Assembly (NCBI GenBank): GCA_030637655.1
Contig: DAOWGI010000109.1
Span: 1-64,000 of the forward strand
DNA: 64,000 bases
Source: a candidate division FCPU426 bacterium
Lineage (GTDB): Bacteria; Oederibacteriota; JAAXVQ01; JAUVAV01
Reading direction: 5' to 3'
Part shown: one piece after another, positions 5,394 to 64,000 of the stretch
Layout: the number at the start of each line of letters is the position of its first letter
How positions within the stretch are numbered: the first letter of the stretch is position 1
Made by a program: the position numbers and the translations under genes
The notes under the pieces: model-generated
What the model was told of the DNA's origin: nothing
The model's database searches: none
The model's input: the letters and a program-made list of their open reading frames with translations, nothing else

Positions 5394-5414
5394 GCTGCCG
5401 CTACCTTAATATGA

Positions 5415-37708: not shown

Positions 37709-37750
37709 ATGACAGCTTCCTCCTAATTTAAGTCGGGGTGAATATACACT

Positions 37751-38824
37751 TCATTTTCGTTTTTTTTTGTCACTCAAGTAGTGTTTTAAGCTTTTTCGCA
37801 GCCATTCCGCGCGTCTCAAAAACTCATCAGTTCCGGTTAACGTTTTTTTGGCCAAGAGCTGCAAATGAGAGGTTTGGCTTTGGAGCATTAATTCATTAAA
37901 CACGGTTTTGGGTATATCCGGAATAATCTTCACTTCCGCACCCAGACGTAATATGGATAAAAGATCCAATGCTTCTTCAAACCCCAGCATGCGACAATGG
38001 CTTAAGATTCCTTTCGCCCTCCCTACTTTATCCTCGAGCAAAGCGGATTCATCCTTCACTAGTTTTTGGCGGGCGTCTTTCTCCCGATCCATAATTTGAC
38101 GAATCACACCAACCAATTGCTGGATAATTTCCTCCTCGGTTCTGCCTAAGGTCACTTGGTTGCTGACCTGAAAAAACATACTGCGCAATTCCGAGCCTTC
38201 GCCGTAAAATCCGCGCACAGCCAAGCTCATGTGCAAAACTGCCTGCAATACCTGCACAATGCCCCTGGTTAAAGTTAGGGCCGGCAAATGGAGCATTACC
38301 GAAGCGCGCATGCCGGTCCCCACATTAGTGGGGCAGGCGGTTAAAAAACCAAATTCTTTATGCGTGGCCAATTCAAAACCCCGGCTTAGTTGTTCATCCA
38401 GCTGTTGACTCATCTTCAAGCAGCGTTCCAAGTTGAGTCCTTCATAGATAACCTGCGTTCGCAGATGATCTTCTTCATTGACCAAGATGGAAACCGATTG
38501 TCCCGGCCCCAATGCCAAACCCGTATAATCAGGTTCCCGGGCGGATTCAAGATGCATCAAACCGCGTTCCGCCAAAATTCCGCGCTGCATAATATCCATG
38601 TCGCGCAAACGATAAAATTGCAGAGCTGGTTTCAACGAAATTTTTAAAATCTGCTGTTCAATCTTACTTAAAAGTATTTCCCGTTCCTGTTTGTCCATAG
38701 CCTGCGGAAAGCGGTATTTTTTCAGATTCCGGGCTAAGCGCACGCGTGAGGATATAACAATATTTTCATTGGGCGAAGTATTTTTCAACCACGCTGGAAA
38801 CGCTATTTTTTTACCCGGCATCAC
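37751..38824 (-). CDS. mcsB: Protein arginine kinase McsB
   Basis: SSRVRLARNL, NEEDHLR and LTACPTNVGTGMRASVMLHLP motifs. Confidence 0.94.
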   Translation of the reverse strand: MMPGKKIAFPAWLKNTSPNENIVISSRVRLARNLKKYRFPQAMDKQEREILLSKIEQQILKISLKPALQFYRLRDMDIMQRGILAERGLMHLESAREPDYTGLALGPGQSVSILVNEEDHLRTQVIYEGLNLERCLKMSQQLDEQLSRGFELATHKEFGFLTACPTNVGTGMRASVMLHLPALTLTRGIVQVLQAVLHMSLAVRGFYGEGSELRSMFFQVSNQVTLGRTEEEIIQQLVGVIRQIMDREKDARQKLVKDESALLEDKVGRAKGILSHCRMLGFEEALDLLSILRLGAEVKIIPDIPKTVFNELMLQSQTSHLQLLAKKTLTGTDEFLRRAEWLRKSLKHYLSDKKKRK

Positions 38825-39321
38825 GAATCCCTGCCTTCCAGACGACGAATCCGATCCCGCAGTTGGGCTGCCATCTCAAAATTTTCCTGTGCAATCGCCT
38901 GCTGCAACCGGGCTTTGGTTTCCTTTATTTCCTTCTGTTTTATTTTACTTTCCATCTCCTGATTTTGCATAAATCGTCCGCGATGCTCCTCGGATTGATG
39001 AAACTGTCTAAATAGCGGCAACAAATTTTTCCGAAACGTATCATAACACTGAGCACAACCAAATCGCCCAATTTCCCGGAAGCGCGAAAAGGTCATACCG
39101 CAGTTCGGACATTTTATTTCCTTGGCACTAAGCGTTGTCACACCCAATTCCAGAATCGAGGCCAGCAATTCATGAATCGCCATAGCCGGTTTGGTCAGCA
39201 TCTCACCTAAATGACGCTTCTGGGCGCAGCTCTCACAAATATGCATGACGGATTGTTTTCCCCCGATATTCTCAATCAGATATACGTTCGCTTCCTCCTG
39301 ATGGCAGATCTGACACTGCAT
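38821..39321 (-). CDS. mcsA: McsA (four CxxC motifs + UVR domain)
   Basis: CQIC, CESC, CPNC, CAQC and ENFEMAAQLRDRI. Likely start MQCQIC at 39321. Confidence 0.92.
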   Translation of the reverse strand: MQCQICHQEEANVYLIENIGGKQSVMHICESCAQKRHLGEMLTKPAMAIHELLASILELGVTTLSAKEIKCPNCGMTFSRFREIGRFGCAQCYDTFRKNLLPLFRQFHQSEEHRGRFMQNQEMESKIKQKEIKETKARLQQAIAQENFEMAAQLRDRIRRLEGRDS

Positions 39322-40015
39322 CTTTGGCCACCCCTTTCTCGCCGACAATCAAACCGTCTTCTATGGTTATAACACGATTGGCAATCCTACCCAGTTCCGG
39401 ATTGTGTGTTACGATGATGATCGTTTGACCGTGCGTTTCATTAAAACGCTGAAATAATTCATGAATTCCTTTGGCGGTGACACCGTCCAGATCGCCGGTC
39501 GGTTCATCGGCCAAGAGCAAGCGGGGTTCATTCATTAGCGCGCGGGCAATTGCCACCCGTTGCTGCTCACCACCGGACAATTCTCCCGGACGGTGCTTGA
39601 AGCGTTTTTCCAAGCCGACCTCAGCCAGCAGGGATCGAGCGCGCTCACACGCCAAACGCCGCACAGCACCTTGAATCATGGCCGGCAGCATAACATTTTC
39701 TTCCGCCGTAAACTCCGGCAGCAAATGATGCATCTGAAAAACAAAACCCACGTATTGGCTCCGGCTGCGGGAAAGCCCCTCATCATTTTGCGCAAATAGA
39801 TCGCGCCCGGATATTTCCACAGTACCCGAGCTGGGACACATTAATCCTCCGGCAATATTCAACAGGGTGGTTTTGCCGGCACCCGATGGTCCCATGATCG
39901 CTACCGTTTCTCCTTGCGCCACGTGCAAGGATACTCCTTTGAGCACAGGAACCGGTTGTTTCCCAAGAATAAATCTCTTTTTTACAGCATTAAGTTTAAG
40001 TAAAAAATCACTCAT
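39272..40015 (-). CDS. lolD: Lipoprotein-releasing ABC ATPase
   Basis: GPSGAGKT, GFVFQMHHLLPEFTA, LSGGEQQR and LADEPTG motifs. Downstream of lolC/E. Confidence 0.9.
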   Translation of the reverse strand: MSDFLLKLNAVKKRFILGKQPVPVLKGVSLHVAQGETVAIMGPSGAGKTTLLNIAGGLMCPSSGTVEISGRDLFAQNDEGLSRSRSQYVGFVFQMHHLLPEFTAEENVMLPAMIQGAVRRLACERARSLLAEVGLEKRFKHRPGELSGGEQQRVAIARALMNEPRLLLADEPTGDLDGVTAKGIHELFQRFNETHGQTIIIVTHNPELGRIANRVITIEDGLIVGEKGVAKDAVSDLPSGGSERISD

Positions 40016-50565: not shown

Positions 50566-50949
50566 TTAGGCAGTAAAATGTTTTTTTATGCGTTGCCGCA
50601 ATTTCGCAGGTTCAAAAGGTTTCACAATATAATCATCTGCTTTTACCTTGTAACCCTGTTCGATCTCCCGTTTTTGACCAAACGCAGTAAGCATCACCAC
50701 TGGAATCCCGGAGGTTTCTTTATTTCCCTTGAGACGCCGGCAGATCTCATATCCGTCCAGTTTGGGTAACATAATGTCCAGTAAGATCAAGTCAGGATTG
50801 GCTGTGATTCCCAATTCCAGCCCCTGTTCGCCATCCACGGCTTTTAACAGATCATACTCATCCGAACTGAGCGTCAATTCAATCAATTCCATAATTTCCG
50901 GCTCATCTTCCACGATGAGTATTTTATACTTCTTTTCATTGTCCCCCAT
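50566..50949 (-). CDS. Single-domain response regulator
   Basis: ILIVEDE, LLDIMLP, MLTA and KPF motifs. ATG at 50949 after AGGAG. Confidence 0.9.
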   Translation of the reverse strand: MGDNEKKYKILIVEDEPEIMELIELTLSSDEYDLLKAVDGEQGLELGITANPDLILLDIMLPKLDGYEICRRLKGNKETSGIPVVMLTAFGQKREIEQGYKVKADDYIVKPFEPAKLRQRIKKHFTA

Positions 50950-50959
50950 AGACACTCCT

Positions 50960-51313
50960 TTAGTTCATACCGCAATTATTATATGGAATGAAAGGACAAC
51001 TGGCAAGCCATTTCTTGGCGGCACATTTTTTTGGCAGATTGAGTAACCCTGCCGGCACATTCAAAGCTTCACAGAAATTCCGGGAAATTCCAGGCGTCCT
51101 TGTGCCGTCCCGGGCATTTCCGGCAGCTGTTCCCACCGGGATAAGTGTTAATGCTACCCCGGCGTTATTGGCCAATAGCAGATCACTAAGATATATTAAT
51201 TTGGAAACATCGTCCTCACAAGTATATACTGCCGTAATGACAGTATTTTGTTTTACCGGAATCAGTGTTCCGGTTTTGACCTCCACCTGATATCCGCATA
51301 AATTAAACAACAA
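50960..51313 (-). CDS. CheC/CheX-like hypothetical protein, possibly degraded
   Basis: 'DLLLANNAGVALTLIP...RNFCEALNV.AGLLN' resembles the E..N phosphatase-like helix. Poor start site. Confidence 0.45.
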   Translation of the reverse strand: MLFNLCGYQVEVKTGTLIPVKQNTVITAVYTCEDDVSKLIYLSDLLLANNAGVALTLIPVGTAAGNARDGTRTPGISRNFCEALNVPAGLLNLPKKCAAKKWLASCPFIPYNNCGMN

Positions 51314-51340
51314 CCGGTAACACTGTATCCGGAAGTGATA

Positions 51341-51841
51341 TCATTGTTTTTGACCTCCACTTTCACCTCTTTGCAACACGACCAACAAAACATTCACCGT
51401 GCCCCACAGTGAATTACTGACCGCAGTAGCCAACGGTTCCTTAAAATGGACCATTCCATCGAAAAAGAAGGGCAAGCCGATCTGAGGTGAAGAAACGCGG
51501 TCAGCGACCAGGCGTTTTATACTTCCTGCGAGGATATTTGCCATTTCGCCTATCGCATCAGCCACATCCGCCGTGGTTACCGGTTCTGTATCCGCCATAC
51601 CTAATAAACTTCGGGAAAGCGCCTGACACCCCTCCGGATCACTGAGTATCCCGATTTCCATCTTCGCTGTCTCACCATCCCCCACTAAGGGGATGTAAGC
51701 TCCAATCTTCTTTAACGGCACTTCAGTCAAGCGGCCTATGACTTCGAATTTTTCATAGCCCAGCGCTGTGGTTACCAGCTCCTGCGCGGACGTTTCCGCT
51801 GCTTCCAGCCACTCTCTCATTGACATCTGCGCGCCGCTCAT
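51341..51841 (-). CDS. cheX: Chemotaxis phosphatase CheX family
   Basis: DVADAIGEMANILAGSIK and IGLP motifs. Confidence 0.85.
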   Translation of the reverse strand: MSGAQMSMREWLEAAETSAQELVTTALGYEKFEVIGRLTEVPLKKIGAYIPLVGDGETAKMEIGILSDPEGCQALSRSLLGMADTEPVTTADVADAIGEMANILAGSIKRLVADRVSSPQIGLPFFFDGMVHFKEPLATAVSNSLWGTVNVLLVVLQRGESGGQKQ

Positions 51842-52200
51842 GACAGAACTCCGGAAAGGGCTTGCTGAAAAGTTCCCACTGTGAATGGTTTGGAAATAAA
51901 GAACAGGGCCCCGGCTTCTATGGCTCTTTTTCTCATCTCCGGGGTTCCTTCAGAGGTCACAAATCCAAACTTTATTGGGGAGCTGTTTTTTTTCATTTCT
52001 TCAATTAATTCCATGCCGGACATCTCCGGCATATTCCAGTCTATAAGCACAATATCCGGGGACGATTGCAGAATGATGTTTAAGGCCTCTCTCCCGGTAG
52101 CGGCCTCTTCCGTAACGAAATCATCATATCCGGCCTGGCGCAAAGTACGTTTGACGATCATGCGCATAGCCTTGCTGTCATCGACAATCAATATCTTCAT
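51838..52200 (-). CDS. cheY: CheY-like response regulator
   Basis: ILIVDDS.AMR.IV, DWNMPEMSG, VTSE and KPF motifs. Confidence 0.85.
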   Translation of the reverse strand: MKILIVDDSKAMRMIVKRTLRQAGYDDFVTEEAATGREALNIILQSSPDIVLIDWNMPEMSGMELIEEMKKNSSPIKFGFVTSEGTPEMRKRAIEAGALFFISKPFTVGTFQQALSGVLS

Positions 52201-52366
52201 GTCCTCACTCCTCTTTATTGTATTTTGATAATTTACCCTGCAGCAAACTGCAGGGAATAATCCGGTTTAATTTCCAACTTTGCGCACCCTGCGCCTCGGC
52301 GGTGAAAACGTCCTGAAATCACAGGTTTAAAAACTATGAATATTGTCGGCTAATCATCCGAAAAAT

Positions 52367-52566
52367 TTAATTTTTTATCTCCTGACTCCTAAATTCCGAC
52401 TGCCGAAATTTACTTTTGAATTCCCGGATGCGCTTGCTTAAGCGCGCCCTGATTAGTTCTTGCTTACCGCTATGCAATGCAGGTTAATGCCGGTGATGGA
52501 CTTCACAAACGATGCAATCTCGCTAAGCTGCTTATCGGAAAGATCGTCGCTATCATTCCTGGACAT
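52367..52566 (-). pseudogene. cheR: Frameshifted and truncated cheR methyltransferase
   Basis: MSRNDSDDLSDKQLSEIASFVKSITGINLH, then after a 5-bp TGCAT duplication SGKQELIRARLSKRIREF (CheR N-terminal domain). The catalytic domain is absent. Confidence 0.8.
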
Positions 52567-52581
52567 AGACTTCACCCGACT

Positions 52582-53169
52582 TCATCCCCCGCATCCATCC
52601 TTCTCCTGAATATTTTCTTCTTTAGTATTTTCCGGCATCGTCTCAGCCAAGGACGAATCATTACTATGACTCTCGGGAAGCGATCCTAAAGAGTTGATTT
52701 CCTCGCTGGTTAATACCTTTTGAATATCCAGGAGGATAGTCACCCTTTTTTCTGATTTTCCCAGGCCCAGGATGAAGTCGGTATTAAGTGAAACCCCGAA
52801 TGACGGTGTTTTTTCTATCTCCAGTGCGGGAAAATTCACTACCTCGGAAACCTTATCAATGATTACGCCCATCTCAAGGTTTCCTAAATCGACTACAATA
52901 ATACAGGTCCGGTCCCCTTGGTCTGACTCCGGCATGCCAAATCTGAGACGCAAGTCAATTATAGGAATAACTTTGCCGCGCAGATTGATAACGCCTTTTA
53001 CGAAATCAGGCAGGCGGGGTATGGGAGTAATTTCCATCTTTTGTATGATTCCCTGCACCTTGAGAATCTCGATCCCATATTCCTCCCCGCTCATGCTAAA
53101 TGTCAGGTACAGGCCTCCGAGGTGGCTTTCCTGTGTTTCAATTGCCGAAACTGTTGATACCTGGTTCAT
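52582..53169 (-). CDS. cheW: Chemotaxis coupling protein CheW
   Basis: YLTF..EEYGIEILKV and FVKGVINLRGKVIPIIDLRLRF motifs. Confidence 0.95.
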   Translation of the reverse strand: MNQVSTVSAIETQESHLGGLYLTFSMSGEEYGIEILKVQGIIQKMEITPIPRLPDFVKGVINLRGKVIPIIDLRLRFGMPESDQGDRTCIIVVDLGNLEMGVIIDKVSEVVNFPALEIEKTPSFGVSLNTDFILGLGKSEKRVTILLDIQKVLTSEEINSLGSLPESHSNDSSLAETMPENTKEENIQEKDGCGG

Positions 53170-53386
53170 GGTCGACTCCTCTCTTTATGTTTTTTTCGCT
53201 TACTGTGTGTGTTAGCCACAGCTCATCTTCAGGATTGGTCTAATAAACAAACATCTCTTCATGGTCATTGATGCCGTCATCATCGCTATCCCTGGATTTT
53301 AATATGCCGTCACCGGAGGGTTAATAAAAGCTTTAAACAGTTGGTGGATATGCGGTGGCCGGCACCTGATATACCACAGGAAATAT

Positions 53387-54397
53387 TTAATGGGTAATCG
53401 CTGTTTTCCACAGCCTCCGTATGACAATCAAATAAATTTTTACTGTGCCGATTTCAACCAGCGCGCAAGCGGATTCCTGATTTTTGGTTAATTCGATATT
53501 CCCCTCAATAAAATTCGGCATACCAGTCCAAAGAACCGGTCGGCGGTCTATAATCCGGCGTTTGACTATTCCACATAAGATATTCAAAACTTCTCCCACA
53601 GCATCGACCATATCTTCCTTTGTGAGTTCATTATCTCCCGGTTCGAGTCCTAAAAAAGACCGCGCCAGTTCCTGCATCCCTTGCTGATTTGAGAGTATTC
53701 CGATCAAAACCGCATCTCCTTCACCCACCAGCGGAATATACGTCCCCAAGACATCGTCCTGCGGAAAATGAGGCTCTTTAGTCTTAACCGCATAATCATC
53801 TATTCCCAAAATCGTCTGAGACAACTCAAAGGTCGCGTCCGACATTTCATTGAGCCAATCCTGCGCGGTCATTTTAGCATCCACGTCGCAACCCTGGGGC
53901 TCGTCTTGCTGGAAACCTTCCGATTGTGACCGGATGATAATCAAATGAATTTTCACCTCACCGATTTCAACCAGTGAGCAAGAGAACTCCTGATTTTTTC
54001 TTAATTCAAAATATCCCTCAACAAAAACCGGCAACCCACTCTTAAGAATCGGGTTATGCTCAACCATTTGCCGTTTGACTATTCCACATAAGATATTCAA
54101 AATCTCTTTAATCGCATCAACTATATCTTCCTTTGACAGTTCTTCCGCGCCGGGCTCAAGCCCCAGAAAAGACTGCGCCAGTTCTTTCATCCCTTGCTGA
54201 TTCGAGAGTACGCCGATCAAAACCGCATCCTTTTCACCCACCAGCGGAATATACGCCCCCAAGACATCGTCCTTCGGAAAATCAGGCTCTTTAGTCTTGA
54301 CCGTATAATCATCTGTGCCCAAAATCGTCTGAGACAACACAAAGGTCGCGTCCGACATTTCATTGAGCCAATCCTGTTTACTTATTCTGGTATGCAT
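53387..54397 (-). CDS. Tandem-duplicated CheX-like protein
   Basis: Two near-identical ~170-aa halves, with DAIKEILNILCG and DAVGEVLNILCG respectively. Confidence 0.85.
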   Translation of the reverse strand: MHTRISKQDWLNEMSDATFVLSQTILGTDDYTVKTKEPDFPKDDVLGAYIPLVGEKDAVLIGVLSNQQGMKELAQSFLGLEPGAEELSKEDIVDAIKEILNILCGIVKRQMVEHNPILKSGLPVFVEGYFELRKNQEFSCSLVEIGEVKIHLIIIRSQSEGFQQDEPQGCDVDAKMTAQDWLNEMSDATFELSQTILGIDDYAVKTKEPHFPQDDVLGTYIPLVGEGDAVLIGILSNQQGMQELARSFLGLEPGDNELTKEDMVDAVGEVLNILCGIVKRRIIDRRPVLWTGMPNFIEGNIELTKNQESACALVEIGTVKIYLIVIRRLWKTAITH

Positions 54398-54767
54398 ATT
54401 ATTAATCTCCTGCCCCGGACCAACCTAAACTGAATCCTACCGCCTCTGCGCGCCGACAAACGCAGATAAATTAATTTTGTGCTGCTAAGCAGTCAGTAAT
54501 AAATCATCCCCGCACTGAAGTGCGGAGTATTAAGGTAGAGGGGATCCGGTAATATACCAGCCGTTCTCCATTATTATCGGAGCCTAAACTTTAATATTTA
54601 ATTTTTCATTAATATTTCGGAGCCGTTCAAGGCTTATTTTTGGAAAGCCCTGATTATTTCCCTGGTATCCGTTCCAAAGACAAAATCGTTTGCGCCGCGC
54701 CGATTTCGGCAGCAGCGCACCGGCTCAATTATTTTAACAATATCAAAATACGTAAGGGTGACCGGCA

Positions 54768-54795
54768 GTAGGGGCGCGATTAATCGCGCCCCTAC
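54768..54795. repeat. REP palindrome
   Basis: GTAGGGGCGCGATTAATCGCGCCCCTAC. Confidence 0.85.
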
Positions 54796-54807
54796 TGTAA
54801 AAGGAAA

Positions 54808-57800
54808 TTACGCCGCCCTGAAAGGCGATCTACGCATACGTTTGCGAAAGATATTATCAATAAGATCATCATTCATGCGAAATGGTAATGGTAACCAGAG
54901 ATCATACAAAACCTTGATATTTCTCCCATGTTGCAGCCATTCCGTTGGCAGCACCAATACTTGCGCTCGAGAGCCGCCCAATGGTTCTCCGACTTCGTTC
55001 CCATAGCCTGCCGCCATGACATCAATAGGCAGCATGAGTTTCAATAATTCCGAGAAGTACAGCCACTCGGTTGTTTGCCGTCCGGCATCATCCATAGCAG
55101 TAATGTAATCTTTTACCACCTGACCAAAGGCAATTCTGGTTTCCTTATTCGCATTCCCGGACATTTCAAAATAGGCTCTGCCAACCGATGATTTCTCATC
55201 TTGTAAAGCAATGGCCAATTGCGAAGCTTGTGCTAATTCCGGAGCGCGTTGGGCCAGCTCTGTTTGCAGCTGAGTGAGATATAATTGCGGATTTATACGT
55301 TGTACCAGACCTTGCAAGATACGCTGGATTATTAACGGTTGAATCTGACTGAAACGCCGGAACATGGCAGCTAAAGGACGAATGATTCCATGCGCCCGGG
55401 CAGCCGGCTTGCGCGGCTCCGGTTCTTCCTCAACTATTTTTGTTTTTTTACTGCCTGCTGCCAAAAACGGTTTTTGCCCCTTATCCCGCACAGTGCTTAC
55501 GCGATAAGTCACTTCAGCTGTGTAGTTCTTTTGAGTAATCGGTTTCAAACCGCGCGGATTTTTATATTCATTTAATCCATCCGGCGGCGAAGAGACCGGC
55601 TCAATAGCCAGGAATTTATTTTTCAGCAGGTCCCATATCACCACAAACGTGAGGGAACGGCTTTGCTCCACTTCTATTAATGTGCCGTCCGTTTCATTAT
55701 ATAAACGTGAAGTAGCCATACCCCGCTGATCATAATCCAGATCTTCCAACACTGCATGCCGGTCCGTGTCAGAAGGCTGTAAGTCTCTAAGGTCCAAATC
55801 CGTACCTGCCACTTCCCGGCGTGGATCTTTGGTCGGAATCATGTCCTTCATAACCACTTCTTTTTTTGCCGACGTGCTGATAAACCATTTACCCACACCG
55901 CGTTTGAACCAGGGATGGCTGCCAGTAGTAGCAATAGAACTGTTGCGCAGCTTAATCTTGCTTTTTAATTCATTGCCCTGCAGTGTATAAGAAACTGCGA
56001 TCTTGCCTTTACGTCCAAAACGGCTGGATATTTCCGGATGATCCCTGTTGGCAAAAGAGGTGCGAATGGAAATCCCGTTTTTATCAAACTTTATTTTCTC
56101 CACAGTCCACGGCAATTTACGCACCATGCCGTGGTACACGACTTTGGCAGCGTCTTTTTTGGTGAGTCCCGCAGTAACCAGATCATCATCCGTTAAATCA
56201 ATTTCATGTTCTTTGCCCTTTTCATCCACATAGACAGCTTTATTTCCAGCCACGCGATCAATAAAAGGATACATGACTTCAATGCCGCCGGAAGCCTGTA
56301 CACTTTCAAAATACAGCATTTCCTGGCCCTTGACTTTCCAGGATATAATCTTGCCGGCACAACCAGGCACTATTTCAAAAGAATTACCGGTATTTACATC
56401 TGTGAATATATAAGTGTCATACCCATCACGGCTGGATTGTTGCACATTATATCGGTTGGCAATAGGATTGATAAATTCCTGCGCAAAAGTAATTATCGAG
56501 ATGACCAAAGCAGGCAAACGCCTTGTCCAGGGATGCTGCATGGCCAGTATAATCCTTCTGGCTTCCCGGCCTGGATCCGGTGTGCCTTTAGGCAATAAAG
56601 CAGGTACGGCCTGTGATTCTGGGATGAGCGGTTCTCCTGGCAGTTTTGCAGCAGGGGTTTCTACTACCGGCTCTTTTATAGGCGCTGGTTTTAGTTTTTC
56701 TGCTTTGCCGTCCCCAACACGAATTTCAAATCCCTCGGCCAGAATAATATCCGCCTGCTCTTCGCGTTGTGGAATCCAGACGTGATGTTCCAGAATATCG
56801 TTCATAAAACTCATGACCAAAGTATCAATACCTGGAAAAACCCTGTCAAAATCAGCTTTGGGATCAAGCAAACGTTCTACCCGAAGTTTCTCCTGATTTT
56901 TTTTGAATACCCGGATATTAATAGCAGCTTCTAGTGCCTCGCTAATGCTCTTGGAAAAAGAACCCACCAATGCAAGCAAACCATCATCTATTACAATTAT
57001 ACTATAATCATTGGATGGATCCAGAGCGTGCTGAATTACTTCCATCTGTATCTCAGCTTTCTTCTGGAATAAAACATCAGTATCGATCACCTTAATCTTG
57101 GACGCTGGAATGCCGGCAAATCCCCTGTTTAACATTTGACGCGACAAATAACTTTTTCCGCTGCCTATGCGTCCGGAAACCAGAATAACTGCCCGGCCTT
57201 TTTTCGATATTTTATTTTTGACCCGGTGCTCAAGTTCCTTTAATCCCTCCTTCATGGGCAGTTCTTCAGGCCGTCGGTGCATATCATTCCAATAGGGCCT
57301 AAAGATAAACCTTATGTCTATCAGGGGAGAATCTATTTCGAAGCTGTCTGCCGGCGAACGCAAGCCCAATAAGGTTTCCATTTTCCAAATAATTGCAACT
57401 AATTTTTCAAGTTCACCTGCTTGCAAAGCATAAATTCCCATGGAATGTCTCAAATTCTCTAACCGTTCTACAGCTTGAGATAATTTTTCTTGCATTCGCT
57501 TTGCCAGCAAACTCATTCTGATCTCTTCGCGTAATGCTCTTAGTTCAGCACTCATACCGGATTGACCGGATTGCATTTGCAGGTAATGACTCACTTCATG
57601 CGCTACCTTACCTAAACGGCGGTGTTGAGTCAAAACTTTGATGTTTTGAGGCAGTCCCAGCGCGTTGCTGGCCGGATCATAATAAGAGAGCGCGCCCAAA
57701 CCCAATAATAACCACCAGGGATTAGTACTAACCATCGTCAGCTTTATCTGTTCGATCTCAGACGGAATGTCATCTGTCGCTCCATATATCCACGGGAGCC

Positions 57801-60800
57801 ACGCGTCAGGCAGCTCAGTTCCCAGACCGTTTAATTGGCGCAGATCATCCCGAAAATCCAATAACTCATAATTGGAATCCGCTTTATAACGCAAAGCCCA
57901 AACATCCGGTACCCGATATATAAAATTCAATGTTAAAAGTGTTCCCGCAATCCATATACTGTAGGCCAGCACCATCATAACAGCTTTCGCCAGCCAAAAT
58001 TCCAGTCCACGACCCCATTGGAGCAGCAAAAAATGAGCAGCTAAACTTGCCAATATGGGAATAATCCCAACAAAGAAAATCGGTTGGCGGCCGCTTTTTT
58101 CGCGCAATTCATAATCCGGTATTTGCCAAAACATCAAATTTTTCAGACTAAACATAAGCCGGGCAAAGCGTAAGGCGCGGCGAGTCATGGTGTCTTCCCT
58201 AATTACCTGATACCGCAGGGTATGGCCCAGATGGAGTTTTGCCACTGTGGTTGTAAAGTGGGAAGGTCTTTTGTTTATATTGGCATTTTGCTCTTCAGGT
58301 CTGCTGGGCGACAAATTCAGCGCAGCCAGTATTTGGCGCGGCACGTAAATCTCCAGTTCATCCGCCTCAGCCGCTATTTTGCCTTTTTCAATTAAGCGCT
58401 CTACTGGTATCCCAAATAATCGGTTTATCCAATACCTTCGGAATCCAAATGCTTTTTTATCCAATATTTTGATTTTAATTCTACTGTGCTTGAAATCAGC
58501 AAGGTTAAAATCATCCTTGGTAGCATACTCATACTTCAAATCAATTATAGTAGGATGCCGGTTTATTATCTTCTCAGTCGGCACTGCAGGCATCTGCCTG
58601 CCAAAAACAGAAGCAATCCCATGCACCAAGCTAAAAAACGTCCCTAACAGTGCAACCAACCCCCAGCGAAGCGGAGGTAACCTGTCAAAAACCGGACTAT
58701 GCTTGCGAAGGGGAATATTATATTTTCGTTCTGTAGCCGGCGCAGCGTGCTTAAGCACTTGCGCAAATATTTGCTGATCAAATTCATTGTGAATGAAAGA
58801 CGCCAGGAGGCCGAATGCGGCCAGAGGCAGGAACCACAGGGAGATGGCAGGCAGGGTTAAAAAGATATAAGGCAGCGTATGCTTAAATTGTTCCCGAAAA
58901 TTTCCAAAAAAGCCGGTTTTCCAGTTATAGTCCTGAAGAAATTCCCTAATGGAACCCGGACGTTCTGCTGGAGGCAGTTGCCCGCGGGCACGGTACTGGG
59001 CAATTAATTTCAAGGGCTGATGCAAAAAAAGAAAAACCAGCAAACTACCCATAAAAACAATGGGAGTTCCTGTGATTCCCAGCCCAACGAGCATGCCTAT
59101 TCCAAATAAGCCAACTTGCTCCAATTTTAAACCTGCCCGGCCCCATTGCACCCAACGCTTAGGGGAGCCGGGAAATAAAAACATGGCAAAGAAATATAGC
59201 AAGGAAGCTGCGGCAGCGGTGGCCGGCATTTCGCCGGCCTCAGCAAATTCAGTCGCTGCTTTAGCGCCAAAAGCATGAGATTTAGTAAGCGCGAGAGCTT
59301 CCTGAGCAGCTTGAATTTCCGCTAATTGCCGGAGGGAAATGAAACGAAAATTACCGTCCTCAATGGAATTGAATATATCCTCGCCATATACCTCTTTAAA
59401 GTATTCCCAGGTATCCGCGTGCCAAGGGCCTATGTGCATGGGAAGCGCTGACTGGTAAATACTCATTTCTGCAAGTGTACGCTTATTTTTAAAATTGAAT
59501 GAAGGATCGAGATCTTCCGGCAAGGCAATCCCAATACATTTTAACTCAGCAGCGGTTTTCCCGATGGCAAGCAACAAATTTGTTAATAGAGGTTCCCCAT
59601 CTAAAGCCGGCGCATTAATGGTGTTGATGGTTAACACTTTTTCTTTAGCATCATTTTTACCCACGCCTAATCCGACATAGCCTTTCAATGCTTTACCTTT
59701 ATAAACAAAATAATAAATCATATCCTCATGCATGGCCCGAGTATAGGCATCATTATATTCCAGATCAAACGTGCAATCAATAATACCGGCCCGGCCCCGG
59801 AAAACGCCCAGAAAATTCTGCGGCACCAACAAATAAGTCTTATTTTCGTCTTCCTCAATTCGATCCGCTTTTCGGATTTCCTGAAAGACATCCGCAGAAA
59901 AAGCGTGCATTGCCGGATAAAAACCCTTAATTTTTTGCACATTAATATCCAGAGCATTGGGAAGATGATGGATATAATTTTCGTAAAAATTCTCAAATCC
60001 AATTATACGTTCTGCTAGTGGTCCACTCTCCATCTGATTTACTAGGGCGGAATCCTCCATAGCATCACTGATCATTAATTCACACATCAAGAAAATTAGG
60101 CGTTCGGATTGTGCCTTGCGCTTTTGAGACAAATGACTTCTCAAGAAACGAAATGCGGCGAGGTAAAAAAGTCTCCGATTGGCCCGGAGTTCCCCAAATA
60201 TTTCACTGATTGGTTTTGCCGGTATGGCTGCCTTGACCCTGCGATCAGGCTTCTTACCCATTTTAAAGAACAGGAACTGCAAGTATAATCGGCTAAGCTG
60301 AAAATCCGGAATTATCTTTTTTAGCTCAGCATTCCAATCCAATTGATCAACTTGCTGCTTGCAAGCGTACAATTTTTTCATATGGTTATCCAGCACATTG
60401 GGATTGACTTGCGTAGTAACCTGCTCTTGTGCGCCCTGCACGCTTAGCAGCAACGATTTTAATCCGTTGGCTTTAGTAAAAAGTTTTTCAAAATAGCCGT
60501 TATGTATTTCATCCAATTTTGCCAATACCTCAACTCTTTTTACAAACTCCTCAAATCGAATTTTAATCCCGCAAAACCAAGTGCCGATATAAGCCAATTC
60601 CACTTGCCGGCGATCATTATAATCAAATCCATTTTGTATTAACCTCAAGCCTTGTTGTTTGGATTCTTCCAAAAACTCGTGCGGATTCCGGCATGCGAAG
60701 TAGTCCTCAGTCGTGCTTTCCAAATAGGGAAATCCGGCTTTTACCCAAGCCGAATATTTCATATAATCCTGCTTTGACAATCCGCCTAAATCCTGAATAA

Positions 60801-63800
60801 GCGCTGTGATGAAACTGCCAATATAGCGCAGCGCTTGCTCCCTGGCTATAAAATATACCCTTCGCAGTCCTCCAGTTAAATAATTGATAAACCAGGCAGG
60901 ATCACCGCCCTGTTGCAAACAGACCAGGCCGACCTTGCCAATCGCAGTTATTTCCGCCACTTCCAGGTTGATATTAATACTGAACAACAAATCCCGTAAA
61001 ATCCAGGCAGGCGCTTTCCCTTTTTTTATCAATTCAGGCAAGATAAGTCCCAGCGCCAATCTTGCTGAATTAGAAATGTCTTCATTTTCATTTTCATAGG
61101 CACGGGATCTTATTTCTGCTAAAGAAAGCATTCCGTCATAAAATAACTTGGCGTACACATTGGCAAACATTTTAGGTTCATCTGTGATTTGCTTTAAACT
61201 TTTACTGCCATCAGTTTTGAAATATTCTGTTTCAAAAACCGGCAACGTTTTTTGCTCGCTCCGGATCAAAGCAATAATTTCATCCGCGTTTTTTATTATT
61301 TCAATCATTTCAGGATCTTGTTCATGCAACTGATCCCAAAAATAAGGTATATCCTCCTCTGTTTTGCCAACAATAACTTGCTGAGCAAATTTCGCAGCTT
61401 GCTGAACGGATTTATTGCTGGAGCACAGCATCCTTTGTATTTCATTTTCATTTATTAACTTTCGAAAAAACAATTGGGCCAGAACCAGACCCTGCGCTTC
61501 AGGCGCACCAAACCAGCCGGCTGAGAAAGCTTCGGCCAAAAGCAGCAGCAGTTTTCGAAGATATAATGTTTTATTTTCTTTTAACTGGGTTCTTTGCTGT
61601 TCATGCTGCAAACGCATCCATTGTGTCGATTTTTTCTGAATTTCCCGGCCCAATATTCTGCCGACAAAACCTGGTAAAAATTTTCGATCGATTTCCGGTC
61701 TTTTTAAAACCTCAGCTAAATTGCGCAAAAGCTCTGCAGCAAAAACCGGTGCCGCTGTGGGATCTGATAATATACTTTTATGCAGCAATACCGCATGTGG
61801 AGAATCCAACCCTATATCCGGTATTGCCAATCCCAGCAAGTCAATACCCGCTGTCACTGCCGCATACGGCCCAATATTAATCTGCATATTTTCAATCACA
61901 AAAAAACCTTTGACCTCTTCGCCCCATTGCAGATGAAAATTTTCCTTTAGGGATATCCGATTAAGGATTTCTGCTGCTTGAATAATACGCCTGAGCACTT
62001 TTTGATCTTCAGTTACAGGCCCATGATTATCCAGAAAATTTTCGTATCCTTTCATTGCTTCACTGATTAGCCTTTTTTCATTCGGTCTTAAGACTCGGAG
62101 TTTTAATACCATATGGACAGGTTCCTCAGTCAATTCCCCGTCTGAAGTAACGCCCCGCGCCGAAATTCGTATCAGCTTAGGCCCTGGAACTCCAACCTCT
62201 CTTTCTATATCTTTGCTTTCTATTCCTGTAAGCGCTACCTGCCGCGAGTCCTTAGCCGCTACCAACTCCGGCTTTTTGCCATCACTTCGTCCTTCATTCA
62301 ATAAAGCTGGTTTGATTTTTTTACTAACCTTCAATATTCTTCGTCCTACCACTCGCGGCACTCCGGCCAATTGCATATACCTTAAATCCATTATCCTTCG
62401 TGTTAAAATACTTAAAATCAGTAGTCCGGTTATTACTATGCCTGGCATATTGCCGCTGACTATAAATATCGCCAACGCGATTCCTATCGCAGCGCCGGTC
62501 CAGGCCTGCGAACTTTCAATCTCTACTCTGGCCGGGATATTCAAAATCCAAGTCAATGCCTGTCTTGGCAAATTGAGAACTCTTTTACTTATTCGGTTAA
62601 GCCTAGCCGCCGGCGATTGCCGTTGACTATGGAATATTTTTTCTATATCAACTTTTGCTTCTTCTGAAGAATAATAATAGGCAATATTATAAGGACCGAT
62701 TTGCCCGGTTTTTTGAAAACTATGCTTTAAATTCCCTGCGATATTTTTTGCCGCTGATACAATCGCTATCATTGATTCACCGGATTTAGCTTGAAGCTTA
62801 GTGGGAATAATATGTACATCCGGCATTTGCTGGAGCAACGCTTTATTCTCAGTATAAAATTTATTATCCACAGCCACACAGACCGGCCCTGCTTGCGTGC
62901 TTTCTTCAAGCAGTGATTTCAATTTCTCCACGCCTAATTCCGCGGCTGCTATCACTTCGCAGTTTAATCTGAAATTACTCGCGAAAGTCCTCTGAAAGTT
63001 TTTAACTGCTTCTGTATGCTGAAGAAATGATTCCATAGCCATGATGTTCTGATTTTTGGCCAGCAGTTTTTCCAGCGGGGTCTGTTGGTTTTGCAGCAGG
63101 GAAAAATAGGGATTGATCACATCCTGTTGGGTCAGGCCAGGTGTGATGGATACATAAGTTATGCCGCGGCGTTTGAGTTCTGCCAGCACGTGGTCTGTGT
63201 GAAACCCGCCGGTGATCATAACCGACAGCTTTTCTCCGCTGCGGTTCATCTTCCGGATCAAATTGTCCACAAACTGAATGCTTCGCTCATCTGCCAGATG
63301 ATAAAAATCATCCACTCGCTGCAAATAGTTGTCAAGGGCATACATCTCCGGGTCCGGTTGTAAGGGCACGGCATCCGACTTCGCTAAAGCGATGTCGGAC
63401 AAGCATCGTGCCCTTACGTTATTAATAAAATTGGTAAATTCTTTCATGCTGTATTTTTCCCGCTGAGTGCGAAATTCTGCCAACTCATCAGCAGAAACGG
63501 AAATATTCAGGAGTTTTTCTACGATATCCAGACGGCGATAGAGAATATCTAATTCACGCTGGGGCTCACTGATATACAGCTGTTGGCGTATGACTGTATC
63601 CAGTTTATCCAGTTCCTGAAAAAGCCGGTCCGGATTGATTTCCAAAGAAAAGAAGTTCTGGTTCTCACTTACAAAGCGCTTAAGCTGGGGATAAATATCT
63701 ACCTTCAGTTTCAGCTTGCAGGCGCTGGTATATAGATGGACGCAGTATTTCAAAAGATCCAGGCTGCCTTCACGCCACGCCACGCGCCTGGCATCGAATT

Positions 63801-64000
63801 GCTTTAGCCGGGAGTTATAAAGCGTGGCTTTCAGTTCATCCAGTATCTCGCGCAGGTCATAGCAATATCCCTGGCTCTCGGCATTTAAAAAAGAACCAAC
63901 AGCCTGTCGGCTGGCTTCATACAAGGCCGGGGTCTCAATGCCTTCCAGGCGGATAGGATATTCGCCAATAGCCGCGTAAAATTCCGCGCCGGTGAGCTTG
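54808..64000 (-). CDS. Giant multi-domain membrane protein (>3060 aa, 5' end outside the window) with aldose-1-epimerase, P-loop and HExxH modules
   Basis: The frame stays open to the window edge (KLTGAEFYAAIGEYPIRLEGIETPALYE...). ITGGFH motif, several TM clusters, GRIGSGKS, HEVSH, and mutarotase motifs (YPFIDRV, HGMVR, SHPWF, AIEP). Confidence 0.85.
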   Translation of the reverse strand, partial: KLTGAEFYAAIGEYPIRLEGIETPALYEASRQAVGSFLNAESQGYCYDLREILDELKATLYNSRLKQFDARRVAWREGSLDLLKYCVHLYTSACKLKLKVDIYPQLKRFVSENQNFFSLEINPDRLFQELDKLDTVIRQQLYISEPQRELDILYRRLDIVEKLLNISVSADELAEFRTQREKYSMKEFTNFINNVRARCLSDIALAKSDAVPLQPDPEMYALDNYLQRVDDFYHLADERSIQFVDNLIRKMNRSGEKLSVMITGGFHTDHVLAELKRRGITYVSITPGLTQQDVINPYFSLLQNQQTPLEKLLAKNQNIMAMESFLQHTEAVKNFQRTFASNFRLNCEVIAAAELGVEKLKSLLEESTQAGPVCVAVDNKFYTENKALLQQMPDVHIIPTKLQAKSGESMIAIVSAAKNIAGNLKHSFQKTGQIGPYNIAYYYSSEEAKVDIEKIFHSQRQSPAARLNRISKRVLNLPRQALTWILNIPARVEIESSQAWTGAAIGIALAIFIVSGNMPGIVITGLLILSILTRRIMDLRYMQLAGVPRVVGRRILKVSKKIKPALLNEGRSDGKKPELVAAKDSRQVALTGIESKDIEREVGVPGPKLIRISARGVTSDGELTEEPVHMVLKLRVLRPNEKRLISEAMKGYENFLDNHGPVTEDQKVLRRIIQAAEILNRISLKENFHLQWGEEVKGFFVIENMQINIGPYAAVTAGIDLLGLAIPDIGLDSPHAVLLHKSILSDPTAAPVFAAELLRNLAEVLKRPEIDRKFLPGFVGRILGREIQKKSTQWMRLQHEQQRTQLKENKTLYLRKLLLLLAEAFSAGWFGAPEAQGLVLAQLFFRKLINENEIQRMLCSSNKSVQQAAKFAQQVIVGKTEEDIPYFWDQLHEQDPEMIEIIKNADEIIALIRSEQKTLPVFETEYFKTDGSKSLKQITDEPKMFANVYAKLFYDGMLSLAEIRSRAYENENEDISNSARLALGLILPELIKKGKAPAWILRDLLFSININLEVAEITAIGKVGLVCLQQGGDPAWFINYLTGGLRRVYFIAREQALRYIGSFITALIQDLGGLSKQDYMKYSAWVKAGFPYLESTTEDYFACRNPHEFLEESKQQGLRLIQNGFDYNDRRQVELAYIGTWFCGIKIRFEEFVKRVEVLAKLDEIHNGYFEKLFTKANGLKSLLLSVQGAQEQVTTQVNPNVLDNHMKKLYACKQQVDQLDWNAELKKIIPDFQLSRLYLQFLFFKMGKKPDRRVKAAIPAKPISEIFGELRANRRLFYLAAFRFLRSHLSQKRKAQSERLIFLMCELMISDAMEDSALVNQMESGPLAERIIGFENFYENYIHHLPNALDINVQKIKGFYPAMHAFSADVFQEIRKADRIEEDENKTYLLVPQNFLGVFRGRAGIIDCTFDLEYNDAYTRAMHEDMIYYFVYKGKALKGYVGLGVGKNDAKEKVLTINTINAPALDGEPLLTNLLLAIGKTAAELKCIGIALPEDLDPSFNFKNKRTLAEMSIYQSALPMHIGPWHADTWEYFKEVYGEDIFNSIEDGNFRFISLRQLAEIQAAQEALALTKSHAFGAKAATEFAEAGEMPATAAAASLLYFFAMFLFPGSPKRWVQWGRAGLKLEQVGLFGIGMLVGLGITGTPIVFMGSLLVFLFLHQPLKLIAQYRARGQLPPAERPGSIREFLQDYNWKTGFFGNFREQFKHTLPYIFLTLPAISLWFLPLAAFGLLASFIHNEFDQQIFAQVLKHAAPATERKYNIPLRKHSPVFDRLPPLRWGLVALLGTFFSLVHGIASVFGRQMPAVPTEKIINRHPTIIDLKYEYATKDDFNLADFKHSRIKIKILDKKAFGFRRYWINRLFGIPVERLIEKGKIAAEADELEIYVPRQILAALNLSPSRPEEQNANINKRPSHFTTTVAKLHLGHTLRYQVIREDTMTRRALRFARLMFSLKNLMFWQIPDYELREKSGRQPIFFVGIIPILASLAAHFLLLQWGRGLEFWLAKAVMMVLAYSIWIAGTLLTLNFIYRVPDVWALRYKADSNYELLDFRDDLRQLNGLGTELPDAWLPWIYGATDDIPSEIEQIKLTMVSTNPWWLLLGLGALSYYDPASNALGLPQNIKVLTQHRRLGKVAHEVSHYLQMQSGQSGMSAELRALREEIRMSLLAKRMQEKLSQAVERLENLRHSMGIYALQAGELEKLVAIIWKMETLLGLRSPADSFEIDSPLIDIRFIFRPYWNDMHRRPEELPMKEGLKELEHRVKNKISKKGRAVILVSGRIGSGKSYLSRQMLNRGFAGIPASKIKVIDTDVLFQKKAEIQMEVIQHALDPSNDYSIIVIDDGLLALVGSFSKSISEALEAAINIRVFKKNQEKLRVERLLDPKADFDRVFPGIDTLVMSFMNDILEHHVWIPQREEQADIILAEGFEIRVGDGKAEKLKPAPIKEPVVETPAAKLPGEPLIPESQAVPALLPKGTPDPGREARRIILAMQHPWTRRLPALVISIITFAQEFINPIANRYNVQQSSRDGYDTYIFTDVNTGNSFEIVPGCAGKIISWKVKGQEMLYFESVQASGGIEVMYPFIDRVAGNKAVYVDEKGKEHEIDLTDDDLVTAGLTKKDAAKVVYHGMVRKLPWTVEKIKFDKNGISIRTSFANRDHPEISSRFGRKGKIAVSYTLQGNELKSKIKLRNSSIATTGSHPWFKRGVGKWFISTSAKKEVVMKDMIPTKDPRREVAGTDLDLRDLQPSDTDRHAVLEDLDYDQRGMATSRLYNETDGTLIEVEQSRSLTFVVIWDLLKNKFLAIEPVSSPPDGLNEYKNPRGLKPITQKNYTAEVTYRVSTVRDKGQKPFLAAGSKKTKIVEEEPEPRKPAARAHGIIRPLAAMFRRFSQIQPLIIQRILQGLVQRINPQLYLTQLQTELAQRAPELAQASQLAIALQDEKSSVGRAYFEMSGNANKETRIAFGQVVKDYITAMDDAGRQTTEWLYFSELLKLMLPIDVMAAGYGNEVGEPLGGSRAQVLVLPTEWLQHGRNIKVLYDLWLPLPFRMNDDLIDNIFRKRMRRSPFRAA

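Follow-up and report, generated by a model that had tools for sequence, protein, structure and literature searches.

How does a bacterium come to carry, in one polypeptide of more than three thousand residues, a run of membrane segments together with modules that resemble unrelated enzymes, and what might such a chain do? The question is raised by a gene at the far end of a 64,000-nucleotide stretch of DNA (positions 1 to 64,000 of contig DAOWGI010000109.1, GenBank assembly GCA_030637655.1; hereafter the window) from a candidate division FCPU426 bacterium. The giant open reading frame (ORF) spans positions 54808-63999 on the - strand, with 3,063 codons uninterrupted by a stop, and is open at the window edge. 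A preliminary description, made from the letters of the sequence, had reported a single ORF of more than 9.1 kb running past the edge, which the ORF listing bears out, and had proposed a family built from a conserved leader and swappable cargo. We find that the product, P0002, belongs to a family in which a conserved N-terminal head, and in part of the family a conserved C-terminal tail domain, bound a body that differs between paralogs. Our reading, which we hold with as much doubt as belief, is that P0002 carries a modular set of enzymes tethered to the membrane.

One real gene encoding 3,210 residues

A public protein collection holds the same protein at 100% identity as a chain of 3,210 aa, encoded on a 70,448-bp contig. 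Set against the 3,063 codons in the window, this places the first 147 codons outside it. The gene therefore continues upstream by that length, and the leader and the first catalytic-type motif of P0002 are encoded beyond the window edge. The stop codon, TAA, lies at 54808-54810 on the - strand.

Giant ORFs are prone to misassembly and this is a metagenome-type contig, so that P0002 might be chimeric through assembly, or might result from reading several genes as a single ORF. The composition of the gene speaks against this. Its codon use correlates with that of 28 neighboring genes with r = 0.90 overall, and 1.5-kb segments of the ORF give r = 0.69-0.84, where background segments give 0.71-0.93. 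GC content and codon use are even along the ORF, with no chimera signal in either profile, and no internal repeats are seen. Among 79 loci encoding relatives (see below) there are 37 complete relatives of 956-3,617 aa, including some from metagenome-assembled genomes (MAGs) with contigs of up to 1.47 Mb. Fifteen of these 37 complete ORFs begin with the head and close with the tail domain, and near-identical full-length pairs of family proteins occur in independent records. An artefact is thus very improbable, and we conclude that a real gene encodes all 3,210 aa. A chimera was rejected on the agreement of codon use and GC with the 28 neighbors, and growth by internal repeat expansion on the lack of repeats. 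A second gene of the same family elsewhere in the window was also rejected.

A constant head and exchangeable bodies

The first ~470 residues of P0002 are the sole part common to the other giants found, in alignments that cover 3-20% of the query and always lie at the N-terminus of the other protein. A family profile built from 13 heads was scored against 1.84 billion cluster representatives, of which 9,820 match at E ≤ 1e-3 and 6,435 at E ≤ 1e-30. Of the 9,820, 150 are listed, and in all 150 the head is N-terminal, starting within the first 103 residues; these proteins are 388-7,768 aa long, with a median of 2,293 aa and 107 of them at 1,500 aa or more. This is a very large family without a name, comprising thousands of clusters for which there is no Pfam model.

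A pattern search in one genome per species has 501 matches, and 487 of them encode relatives. The best 80 of the 487 were kept, giving 79 loci from 11 MAGs, which contribute at least 14, and then 12, 11, 10, 8, 7, 6, 5, 4, 1 and 1 loci. Because the best 80 alone were kept these counts are lower bounds, and it is as lower bounds that nine MAGs carry 4-14 family loci each. In one MAG the family takes up at least 15 genes and about 37,000 codons. The named source records among the kept loci are Firestonebacteria, Goldiibacteriota, Omnitrophota and Planctomycetia, and protein names add relatives in Omnitrophota and Auribacterota. The preliminary description had placed similar N-terminal motifs in Elusimicrobiota, Omnitrophota and related candidate phyla; Omnitrophota are present, and Elusimicrobiota do not appear among the best 80 loci kept. 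A stop closes 40 of the 79 family ORFs at these loci, and the other 39 run off the available DNA. A second family gene adjoins the first on the same strand in at least 13 of the 79, namely L009 (660-9746 and 9956-21367), L012, L016, L018, L022, L027, L031, L043, L046, L048, L068, L070 and L071. At one further locus, L066, a head cut to 188 aa (2905-3468) is followed by a separate ORF (3862-5805) carrying a tail domain, and either the family gene is disrupted here or the MAG is misassembled.

The cargo was scanned with Pfam at E ≤ 1e-5 on 31 paralogs from four MAGs. Domains were found in 21 of the 31 (11 of 14 and 10 of 17), and the only recurrent ones are GH130 and PPDK, each in two paralogs. 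Metabolic and transport-type cargo comprises enolase with a TIM fragment, PGM, PPDK, SecY with SecA and GH5, GH130, GH77 and a trehalose-synthase-type glycosyltransferase. There are also HAD, amidohydrolase, ARMT1-like phosphatase, HATPase, saccharopine dehydrogenase and PRTase-CE domains, as well as GNAT, nucleotidyl transferase, cytidylate kinase, methyltransferases with LOG and NUDIX, HTH_3, radical SAM with B12, and MTS. Pfam scores are low for such families, and the cargo therefore consists of divergent copies. One ORF of locus L012 (9941-21340) carries, in this order, a GH5 cellulase domain, a full-length SecY-like domain (Pfam 1-304 of 306, E 4e-40) and a SecA DEAD domain.

We compared all pairs of 118 unique complete proteins, taking the body as residue 520 to L-200 and measuring the fraction of it covered by any alignment. 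The median shared body is 1.0 for the 16 pairs with head identity of at least 90%, 0.64 for the 9 pairs at 80-90%, 0.35 for the 9 pairs at 70-80%, 0.006 for the 114 pairs at 60-70% and 0 for the 11,903 pairs below 60%. Shared body therefore disappears below about 70% head identity. Some individual pairs are clearly discordant. P0049 and L009_660 have heads that are 82% identical and share 2% of the body, and P0003 is 81% identical to P0002 in the head and shares 21% of the body. P0119 is 40% identical to P0002 in the head and 49% identical in a mutarotase module described below. The tandem genes of L009 are 82% identical over 688 aa (89% at the DNA level over 1.9 kb) and otherwise unrelated, one carrying PPDK and the other PGM. 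Such homogeneous heads suggest gene conversion or head duplication, and tandem arrays are a plausible substrate for recombination of bodies.

In a tree of 75 heads the MAGs are interleaved, ortholog pairs such as L074/L075 are found, and one expansion is common to two MAGs (8 rows from CBDUZI and 2 from DAOVYW). This was a quick tree with SH-aLRT support only, and we use it solely for the interleaving of paralog lineages. From the tree and the dependence of body sharing on head identity it follows that bodies are stable between close orthologs and are replaced or recombined on a longer scale. Judged by sequence comparison, heads and bodies have different histories. The proposal of a conserved leader with swappable cargo is thus upheld, with many paralogs sharing the N-terminal domain while their Pfam cargo varies and no fixed architecture.

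The head as a probable hydrolase

The part of the head that lies in the window (residues 148-480; 63001-63999, - strand) contains the three motifs noted earlier, LTGAEF (63979-63996), LEGIE (63934-63948) and ITGGFHT (63196-63216). The last of these includes H414, the second catalytic-type histidine of the head, which follows strand 405-411 in the structural model. The remaining residues of this type, D86-x-H88 and E116, are encoded outside the window, within residues 1-147. The AlphaFold2 (AF2) model of the head, a domain of ~440 aa after the leader, was built from the 13-head profile and has a predicted local distance difference test (pLDDT) score of 81.6 and a predicted TM-score (pTM) of 0.75. 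It contains a helix at 15-38 and strands at 68-74, 80-86, 112-115, 164-167, 405-411 and 428-434, and the alpha/beta core that these form is interrupted by a helical insert of ~230 aa (171-401). The preliminary description had taken this region to be a helical domain. Its motifs are present where it placed them, and the fold in the model is instead an alpha/beta core split by the helical insert.

D86-x-H88, E116 and H414 each lie just past a strand in the model (80-86, 112-115 and 405-411, respectively). H88 and E116 are separated by 28 residues, and H414 sits in the context G-G-F-H. In a set of 166 heads that the profile alone had recovered, D86 is conserved 161 times, H88 162, E116 164, R386 164 and H414 163 times, and the exceptions are gaps save for one Thr at 86 and one His at 386. 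Heads derived from the loci were left out of the counts for positions 85-94 because the pattern by which they were selected included those positions. Over 233 family heads, H414 is present in 225 and falls in a gap in the others. This near-invariance of catalytic-type residues argues for the head being an active enzyme.

A Foldseek comparison of the head model with the PDB lists 47 rows, with EreC at ranks 1 and 2, BcR135 at ranks 4 and 18, and HopBA1 at rank 31. The best match, with E = 4.1e-3 and a probability of 0.97, is to EreC, a member of the erythromycin-esterase family. According to PMC6254334, the TIKI superfamily includes BcR135, HopBA1 and the erythromycin-esterase family, and its catalytic set of two His and two Glu is seen as E3900, H3902, E3930 and H4030 in RRSP and as H85/E113 in BcR135. 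The spacing from His to Glu given there is 28 residues both in BcR135 (H85/E113) and in RRSP (H3902/E3930). The head of P0002 presents this set as D86-x-H88, E116 and H414, with Asp as the first acid. The head probably belongs, as a remote relative, with the TIKI/erythromycin-esterase hydrolases and would work as they do, and what had been called the leader would then itself be a hydrolase domain, a probable identity that the preliminary description overlooked. NCBIfam gave no match for the head, and an Atlas search with it returned unnamed Omnitrophota clusters only.

The likeness to the superfamily (EreA-D, BcR135/136, ChaN, TraB/PrgY/GumN, Tiki, RRSP, PMT C1/C2 and HopBA1) thus extends to an alpha/beta core with a helical lid, an acid-x-His followed by Glu 28 residues on, and a late His in G-x-x-H, all at strand ends. 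The head differs in having no match to a sequence model, Asp in place of the first Glu and a much larger helical insert of ~230 aa, and in being always fused to a leader and a giant variable body.

The leader proper has a positively charged start and a hydrophobic core followed by F-[VLI]-[LF]-P-Y-L-[TSA]-W-A-F-[ED], which falls at residues 30-40 of P0002. In 233 heads, position -3 is T, S, A or G in 200, position -1 is A, S or T in 211, and there is Pro at -6 in 210. Lys and Arg residues number 3.3 on average in the 20 aa preceding the hydrophobic core, against 1.6 past it. This fits a Sec-type leader obeying the -3/-1 rule of signal peptidase I cleavage, and we infer from these features export of the head. 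Conservation of W at -2, F at +1 and E or D at +2 is stronger than a generic signal peptide requires.

A conserved C-terminal domain

P0002 ends in a conserved domain (residues 3023-3210; 54811-55374, - strand) that terminates ...RKRMRRSPFRAA-COOH, and this domain was also overlooked in the preliminary description. It aligns with the C-terminal ends of P0045, P0053 and P0155, and is found at the C-termini of L044, L009, L022, L057, L039, L011 and others. An ad hoc hidden Markov model (HMM), iterated on the family sequences in hand, matches 74 of 245 family proteins, and 57 of the 75 domains detected end within five residues of the C-terminus. It is present in 15 of the 37 complete locus ORFs longer than 900 aa and in none of the 39 that are cut at the 3' end. 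The AF2 model of the domain (pLDDT 86.6, pTM 0.80) has seven helices and a small beta/alpha part. Foldseek found no match for it (best E 0.26). An alignment of the tail searched among longer proteins, in the range 385-2,000 aa only, found none, which is weak evidence.

The family C-terminus takes the form of a basic cluster, about five further residues and then [AS]A-COOH. The last two residues are AA in 20 and SA in 7 of the 37 complete locus ORFs longer than 900 aa, and of 123 database relatives over 1,500 aa, 69 end in AA and 16 in SA. None of the 41 other genes in the window has AA or SA at its end. Among flanking ORFs 17 of 349 end in AA, and at least 10 of those 17 are themselves giant or have the tail domain. 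C-terminal degrons of the ssrA type end in -LAA and are read by ClpXP/ClpAP, FtsH and Prc. A free C-terminus that is Ala-Ala or Ser-Ala in most members gives the giant family a putative likeness to these degrons; its end differs in being encoded in the genome and in following a basic cluster and a folded domain of 180 aa. A complex predicted from the head (45-450) and the tail domain scored 0.11 against a mark of 0.32, a result that counts neither way.

Membrane segments and modules of the body

A hydropathy scan finds about 10 hydrophobic segments in P0002. The first in the body (residues 650-686; 62383-62493, - strand, as are all features of the gene) is a Kyte-Doolittle hydrophobic stretch forming a hairpin or one long membrane span, with a strongly basic flank after it, and corresponds to the transmembrane (TM) hairpin placed earlier at ~62400-62500. 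A hydrophobic segment lies 400-700 residues past the QDxH motif in 79 of the 101 family proteins above 900 aa that have a later segment. Residues 627-740 of P0002 recur in P0034 with 61% identity.

The helical region that follows (residues 687-1104; 61129-62382) has no Pfam match, and residues 787-942 recur in P0045 and P0092. Next comes a segment that we term module B (residues 1105-1731; 59248-61128), which recurs with 37-42% identity in P0005, P0006 and P0008, at other positions in those giants. It has no Pfam match, and nothing is found in the Atlas at 0.9 or above for its C-terminal half. A stretch within module B (59340-59840) had been called GNAT-like. It has no Pfam match at E ≤ 1 and none in the PDB, and a GNAT cluster stands at rank 5 in the Atlas with 0.83, against a lead level of 0.9, so that these three sources give the assignment no supporting match. 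Module B is also found in P0008 (2,519 aa, with WD40-type repeats at its start) and in P0006 (1,911 aa, labeled partial), with no head detected in either. Body modules may circulate outside the head-bearing family.

About five hydrophobic membrane segments are clustered at residues 1738-1946 (58603-59229), and this cluster recurs in P0003, P0028, P0049 and P0056, and the wider region 1686-2110 recurs in P0003, P0028, P0049 and others with 26-53% identity. Between 57928 and 59229 as a whole there are six to seven hydrophobic segments, in agreement with the six to seven further TM helices described there previously.

Two membrane segments lie in an HExxH module (residues 2109-2313; 57502-58116) with a putative zincin-like site. 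The HEVSH motif is present at 57586-57600 as described. The module recurs in P0045 (twice), P0110, P0130 and P0043 with 28-33% identity, and HExxH is kept in five of the six aligned rows, P0043 being without it. No Pfam match was found for the module.

The P-loop NTPase module (56761-57258) has a Walker A sequence GRIGSGKS (57151-57174) and a Walker B-like IIVIDDG (56980-57000). Its match to the NCBIfam uridine kinase model has E = 0.008 and 15.6 bits against a cut-off of 180, it falls below the cut-off of every kinase model, and Pfam AAA-type matches reach E = 0.22. The motif reported earlier is therefore real, and the kinase likeness claimed with it is weak; the module resembles nucleoside or nucleotide kinases only weakly.

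The last module before the tail (residues 2661-3030; 55351-56460) resembles aldose-1-epimerases (mutarotases), as had been proposed. It matches PF01263 with 29.0 bits against a gathering score of 27 (E = 9.2e-7), over positions 78-266 of the 299 in the profile and 55591-56160 of the window. In the PDB it matches 3k25 (Slr1438) with E = 4.9e-5 and 3os7 with E = 0.0066. The motifs YHG (56107-56136), GSHPWF (55906-55923), LDYD (within 55729-55746) and IEP (within 55588-55611) are present. YHG and IEP line up with HGF and LEP of 3k25, and HPYF is shifted in the HMMER alignment. Putative catalytic roles of the His, His, Asp and Glu are assigned after Lactococcus GalM. The same module is 49% identical to residues 6095-6448 of the 7,117-aa P0119. 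Sequence searches of the PDB gave no match for the head, the P-loop module, module B, the HExxH module, region 687-1104 or the tail.

The HExxH module and the head together raise the possibility that P0002 is a polyprotein precursor, cut by its TIKI-like head, by the embedded HExxH module or by both, with release of membrane and soluble enzymes, and with the tail as a turnover mark on the final fragment or on precursor that stays uncut. The retention of HExxH in most of the aligned rows, with two copies of the module in P0045, would suit such a scheme, as would the near-invariant catalytic-type residues of the head and the presumed degron-like end of the tail. There are proteases in the TIKI superfamily (Tiki and RRSP; PMC6254334), and West-Roberts et al. 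raise cleavage by N-terminal peptidase domains in Omnitrophota giants. An exported head would, however, face the opposite side of the membrane from most of the cytoplasmic-type modules, no cleavage sites or conserved linkers between modules were identified, and the HExxH module is not detectable in many family members. We regard a polyprotein as unlikely.

A proposed membrane-tethered carrier

In the reading that we prefer, the leader would export the head to the periplasm, where it would work as a TIKI/erythromycin-esterase-type hydrolase, either an esterase or a peptidase. The chain would pass back into the membrane at residues 650-686, and the body would be suspended at the inner membrane, with those of its modules that depend on cofactors facing the cytoplasm. 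These would be the P-loop module and, in relatives, PPDK, SecA, HATPase, and SAM and radical-SAM enzymes. For P0002 itself, the HExxH, P-loop kinase-like and mutarotase-like modules would form a sugar-handling payload, and their combination suggests sugar handling at the membrane. Head and tail would constitute an invariant chassis for export, assembly or turnover, and the body a payload varied among paralogs, with tandem arrays and head homogenization feeding the recombination that swaps bodies. The multi-pass location in the inner membrane is itself something that we infer from hydropathy.

A bolder proposal goes further. The family, a superfamily of about 10^4 clusters at 50% identity, would be a capped chassis, in which an exported and active TIKI-type head and a degron-like [AS]A tail of new fold enclose arbitrary modules that bacteria in several candidate phyla recombine, and in its boldest form head and tail would recognize or process one another. 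Acting in cis, this interplay would make a bacterial polyprotein or maturation system; in trans, paralogs would be joined head to tail into a membrane-bound multi-enzyme assembly. Mutual recognition would explain why only the ends are constant across 10 or more paralogs per genome. We think this proposal improbable.

A number of findings weigh against a tethered carrier with an active hydrolase head. The topology of the giant chain is the key question. Charge is evenly distributed on the two sides of the second hydrophobic region, and the segments counted by hydropathy from head to tail come to an even number in 31 of 63 proteins and an odd number in 32, a split that makes segment parity uninformative on topology. 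For the head, no Foldseek match in the PDB reaches E ≤ 0.001, and TM-scores are 0.20-0.26. Pfam has no match for residues 1-627, and its TIKI-superfamily models miss the 13 heads, one of which touches PF04187 (ChaN) at E = 0.07. Comparison by hhalign of the head profile with E. coli YbaP of the TraB family gives a probability of 0.2%, a sequence and profile search of the PDB finds nothing, and the first acid of the set is Asp where the superfamily has Glu. Divergence is high in the payload modules, whose enzyme activity is putative; the mutarotase scores barely over threshold and the P-loop far under the cut-offs of its models. Moreover, paralogy, mosaicism and fast-diverging bodies are hallmarks of conflict and effector families too. 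Relatives include proteins with F-box, LRR, WD40 and protein-kinase domains, and TIKI domains are found in the toxins and effectors RRSP, PMT and HopBA1 (PMC6254334).

Neighboring genes and the question of delivery

These last points bear on the alternative that P0002 is a secreted or injected polymorphic effector, comparable to MARTX, whose head would serve in trafficking or processing and whose variable enzymes would act in a prey or host cell; the preliminary description had named delivery to such cells as one of two options. Such an effector would be expected to combine an unvarying N-terminus with changeable cargo and to occur in many paralogs that recombine and whose bodies diverge fast, as these proteins do, and relatives carry F-box, LRR, WD40 and Ser/Thr-kinase domains. 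MARTX, PMT and type III effectors are among the proteins with TIKI domains (PMC6254334), and Omnitrophota giants have been read in print as tools of predation.

The cargo and the surroundings of the genes point the other way. No toxin-type Pfam domain is found in P0002 or the 31 paralogs, whose cargo is of glycolytic, sugar, nucleotide and Sec type, in keeping with the cytoplasm. About 10 hydrophobic segments would keep the chain in the membrane of the producer, and a constant C-terminal domain is atypical of polymorphic toxins. Across the 79 loci we found no secretion, immunity, chaperone or other conserved neighbor, and no family of flanking ORFs occurs next to family genes in more than 6 of the 79. 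PADLOC gave no match, and the gene in the window lies amid chemotaxis, SecDF, lysyl-tRNA synthetase (LysRS) and envelope genes. The family does share with MARTX and polymorphic toxins a constant N-terminus and exchangeable enzyme modules, and the MARTX effector RRSP is a TIKI domain (PMC6254334). It differs in that no RTX repeats, cysteine protease domain or toxin-type cargo were detected, no immunity or type I secretion genes lie nearby, and it has many membrane segments and a conserved C-terminal domain. An effector seems to us a little less probable still than a polyprotein. Between the two options of the preliminary description, a membrane enzyme scaffold is a better fit than delivery, as a preference and not a demonstration.

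The large genes of the window all lie on one strand with the giant gene and have core functions. Directly on its 3' side, 50566-54397 (-) encodes first a 336-aa protein whose C-terminal part is a CheX domain, and then CheW, a receiver, another CheX-domain protein and another receiver. A gap of 410 bp (54398-54807) separates the stop codon of the giant gene from the gene for the 336-aa protein. A scan for promoters and terminators 3' of that stop codon gave signals no higher than in shuffled sequences. Further genes of the window encode an RsmD-like methyltransferase, a HEAT protein, SecD, SecF, LysRS, LolCDE-like ABC parts, McsA, McsB, ClpC, a TamB-like protein, BamA, Skp, LpxD, an LpxC-FabZ fusion, LpxA, LpxI and SMC.

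LysRS is 78% and 70% identical to proteins named as from candidate division FCPU426 bacteria, and the closest placement of the host is as a diderm bacterium near that division. Doud et al. (PMC7031533) group the FCPU426 16S cluster with Goldbacteria, beside Firestonebacteria and Elusimicrobia. Three further features of the window may be recorded. At 23982-25289 (-), LpxC and a FabZ-like protein of the FabA family are fused in one ORF of 435 aa, within a cluster lpxD / lpxC-fabZ / lpxA / lpxI. At 35276-39348 (-) there is a set comprising McsA-like (UVR motif), McsB-like (ATP:guanido phosphotransferase) and ClpC-type AAA+ proteins, in a genome that also has BamA, TamB and Lpx genes; McsA/McsB/ClpC sets are known better from Gram-positive bacteria. 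A TamB/DUF748-like protein of 1,813 aa (29829-35270, -) is encoded beside BamA and Skp (27165-29546, -), and is the second very long envelope protein of the window, unrelated to the giant family.

Relation to known giant proteins

Giant multi-enzyme membrane proteins are already known. West-Roberts et al. 2023 (bioRxiv 10.1101/2023.11.21.568195) describe Omnitrophota giants with many membrane regions, divergent SecA domains, domains of TIM, GPI, FBPase, PGM/PMM, aldolase and PPDK, and a cellobiose-2-epimerase-like domain recognized by structure. Their N-terminal regions are said there to "generally lack identifiable domains" save for C39 or S8 peptidases. A second preprint (bioRxiv 10.64898/2026.06.07.730766) distinguishes three architectural classes, one of them "multi-enzyme metabolic".

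The present family resembles the Omnitrophota giants and Archaeovorins in its very long ORFs with numerous membrane segments. Divergent SecA, TIM, PGM/PMM, PPDK, methyltransferase, HAD, NUDIX, GNAT and HEAT domains along one chain are a further likeness, and the head occurs in Omnitrophota too. The differences are in size, content and lineage. P0002 has 3,210 aa and the 150 listed relatives at most 7,768 aa, whereas the preprints treat proteins of more than 10-30 kaa. P0002 is without a SecA DEAD domain by Pfam, although its relatives P0004 and L012 have SecA. The lineage is that of FCPU426, Firestonebacteria and Goldbacteria, and each genome has 4-14 loci. The available parts of the preprints mention neither a common head nor a common tail domain, nor an [AS]A end. 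Nor did we find a description of a common head, tail or leader in the literature on giant proteins, Omnitrophota, Firestonebacteria, Goldbacteria, FCPU426 and erythromycin esterase, including PMC12057145 and the Lipocone preprint, on which the supplements of the preprints may bear. P0002 is closest to a small relative in kind of the Omnitrophota giants, from another lineage, and what is new is the head, the tail, the leader, the lineage, and the heavy paralogy with recombination between heads and bodies.

Printed accounts of giant multi-enzyme membrane proteins in candidate phyla are, in the parts accessible, catalogues of domains without a unifying element or mechanism. The near-invariant set of residues in the head, together with the shared leader motif and the tail, provides a handle by which a family can be defined, and allows the exchange of bodies to be traced. 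Head, tail and leader are small parts, of about 180-480 aa each, that are open to expression and assay. The family that they define may occupy a noticeable share of some genomes.

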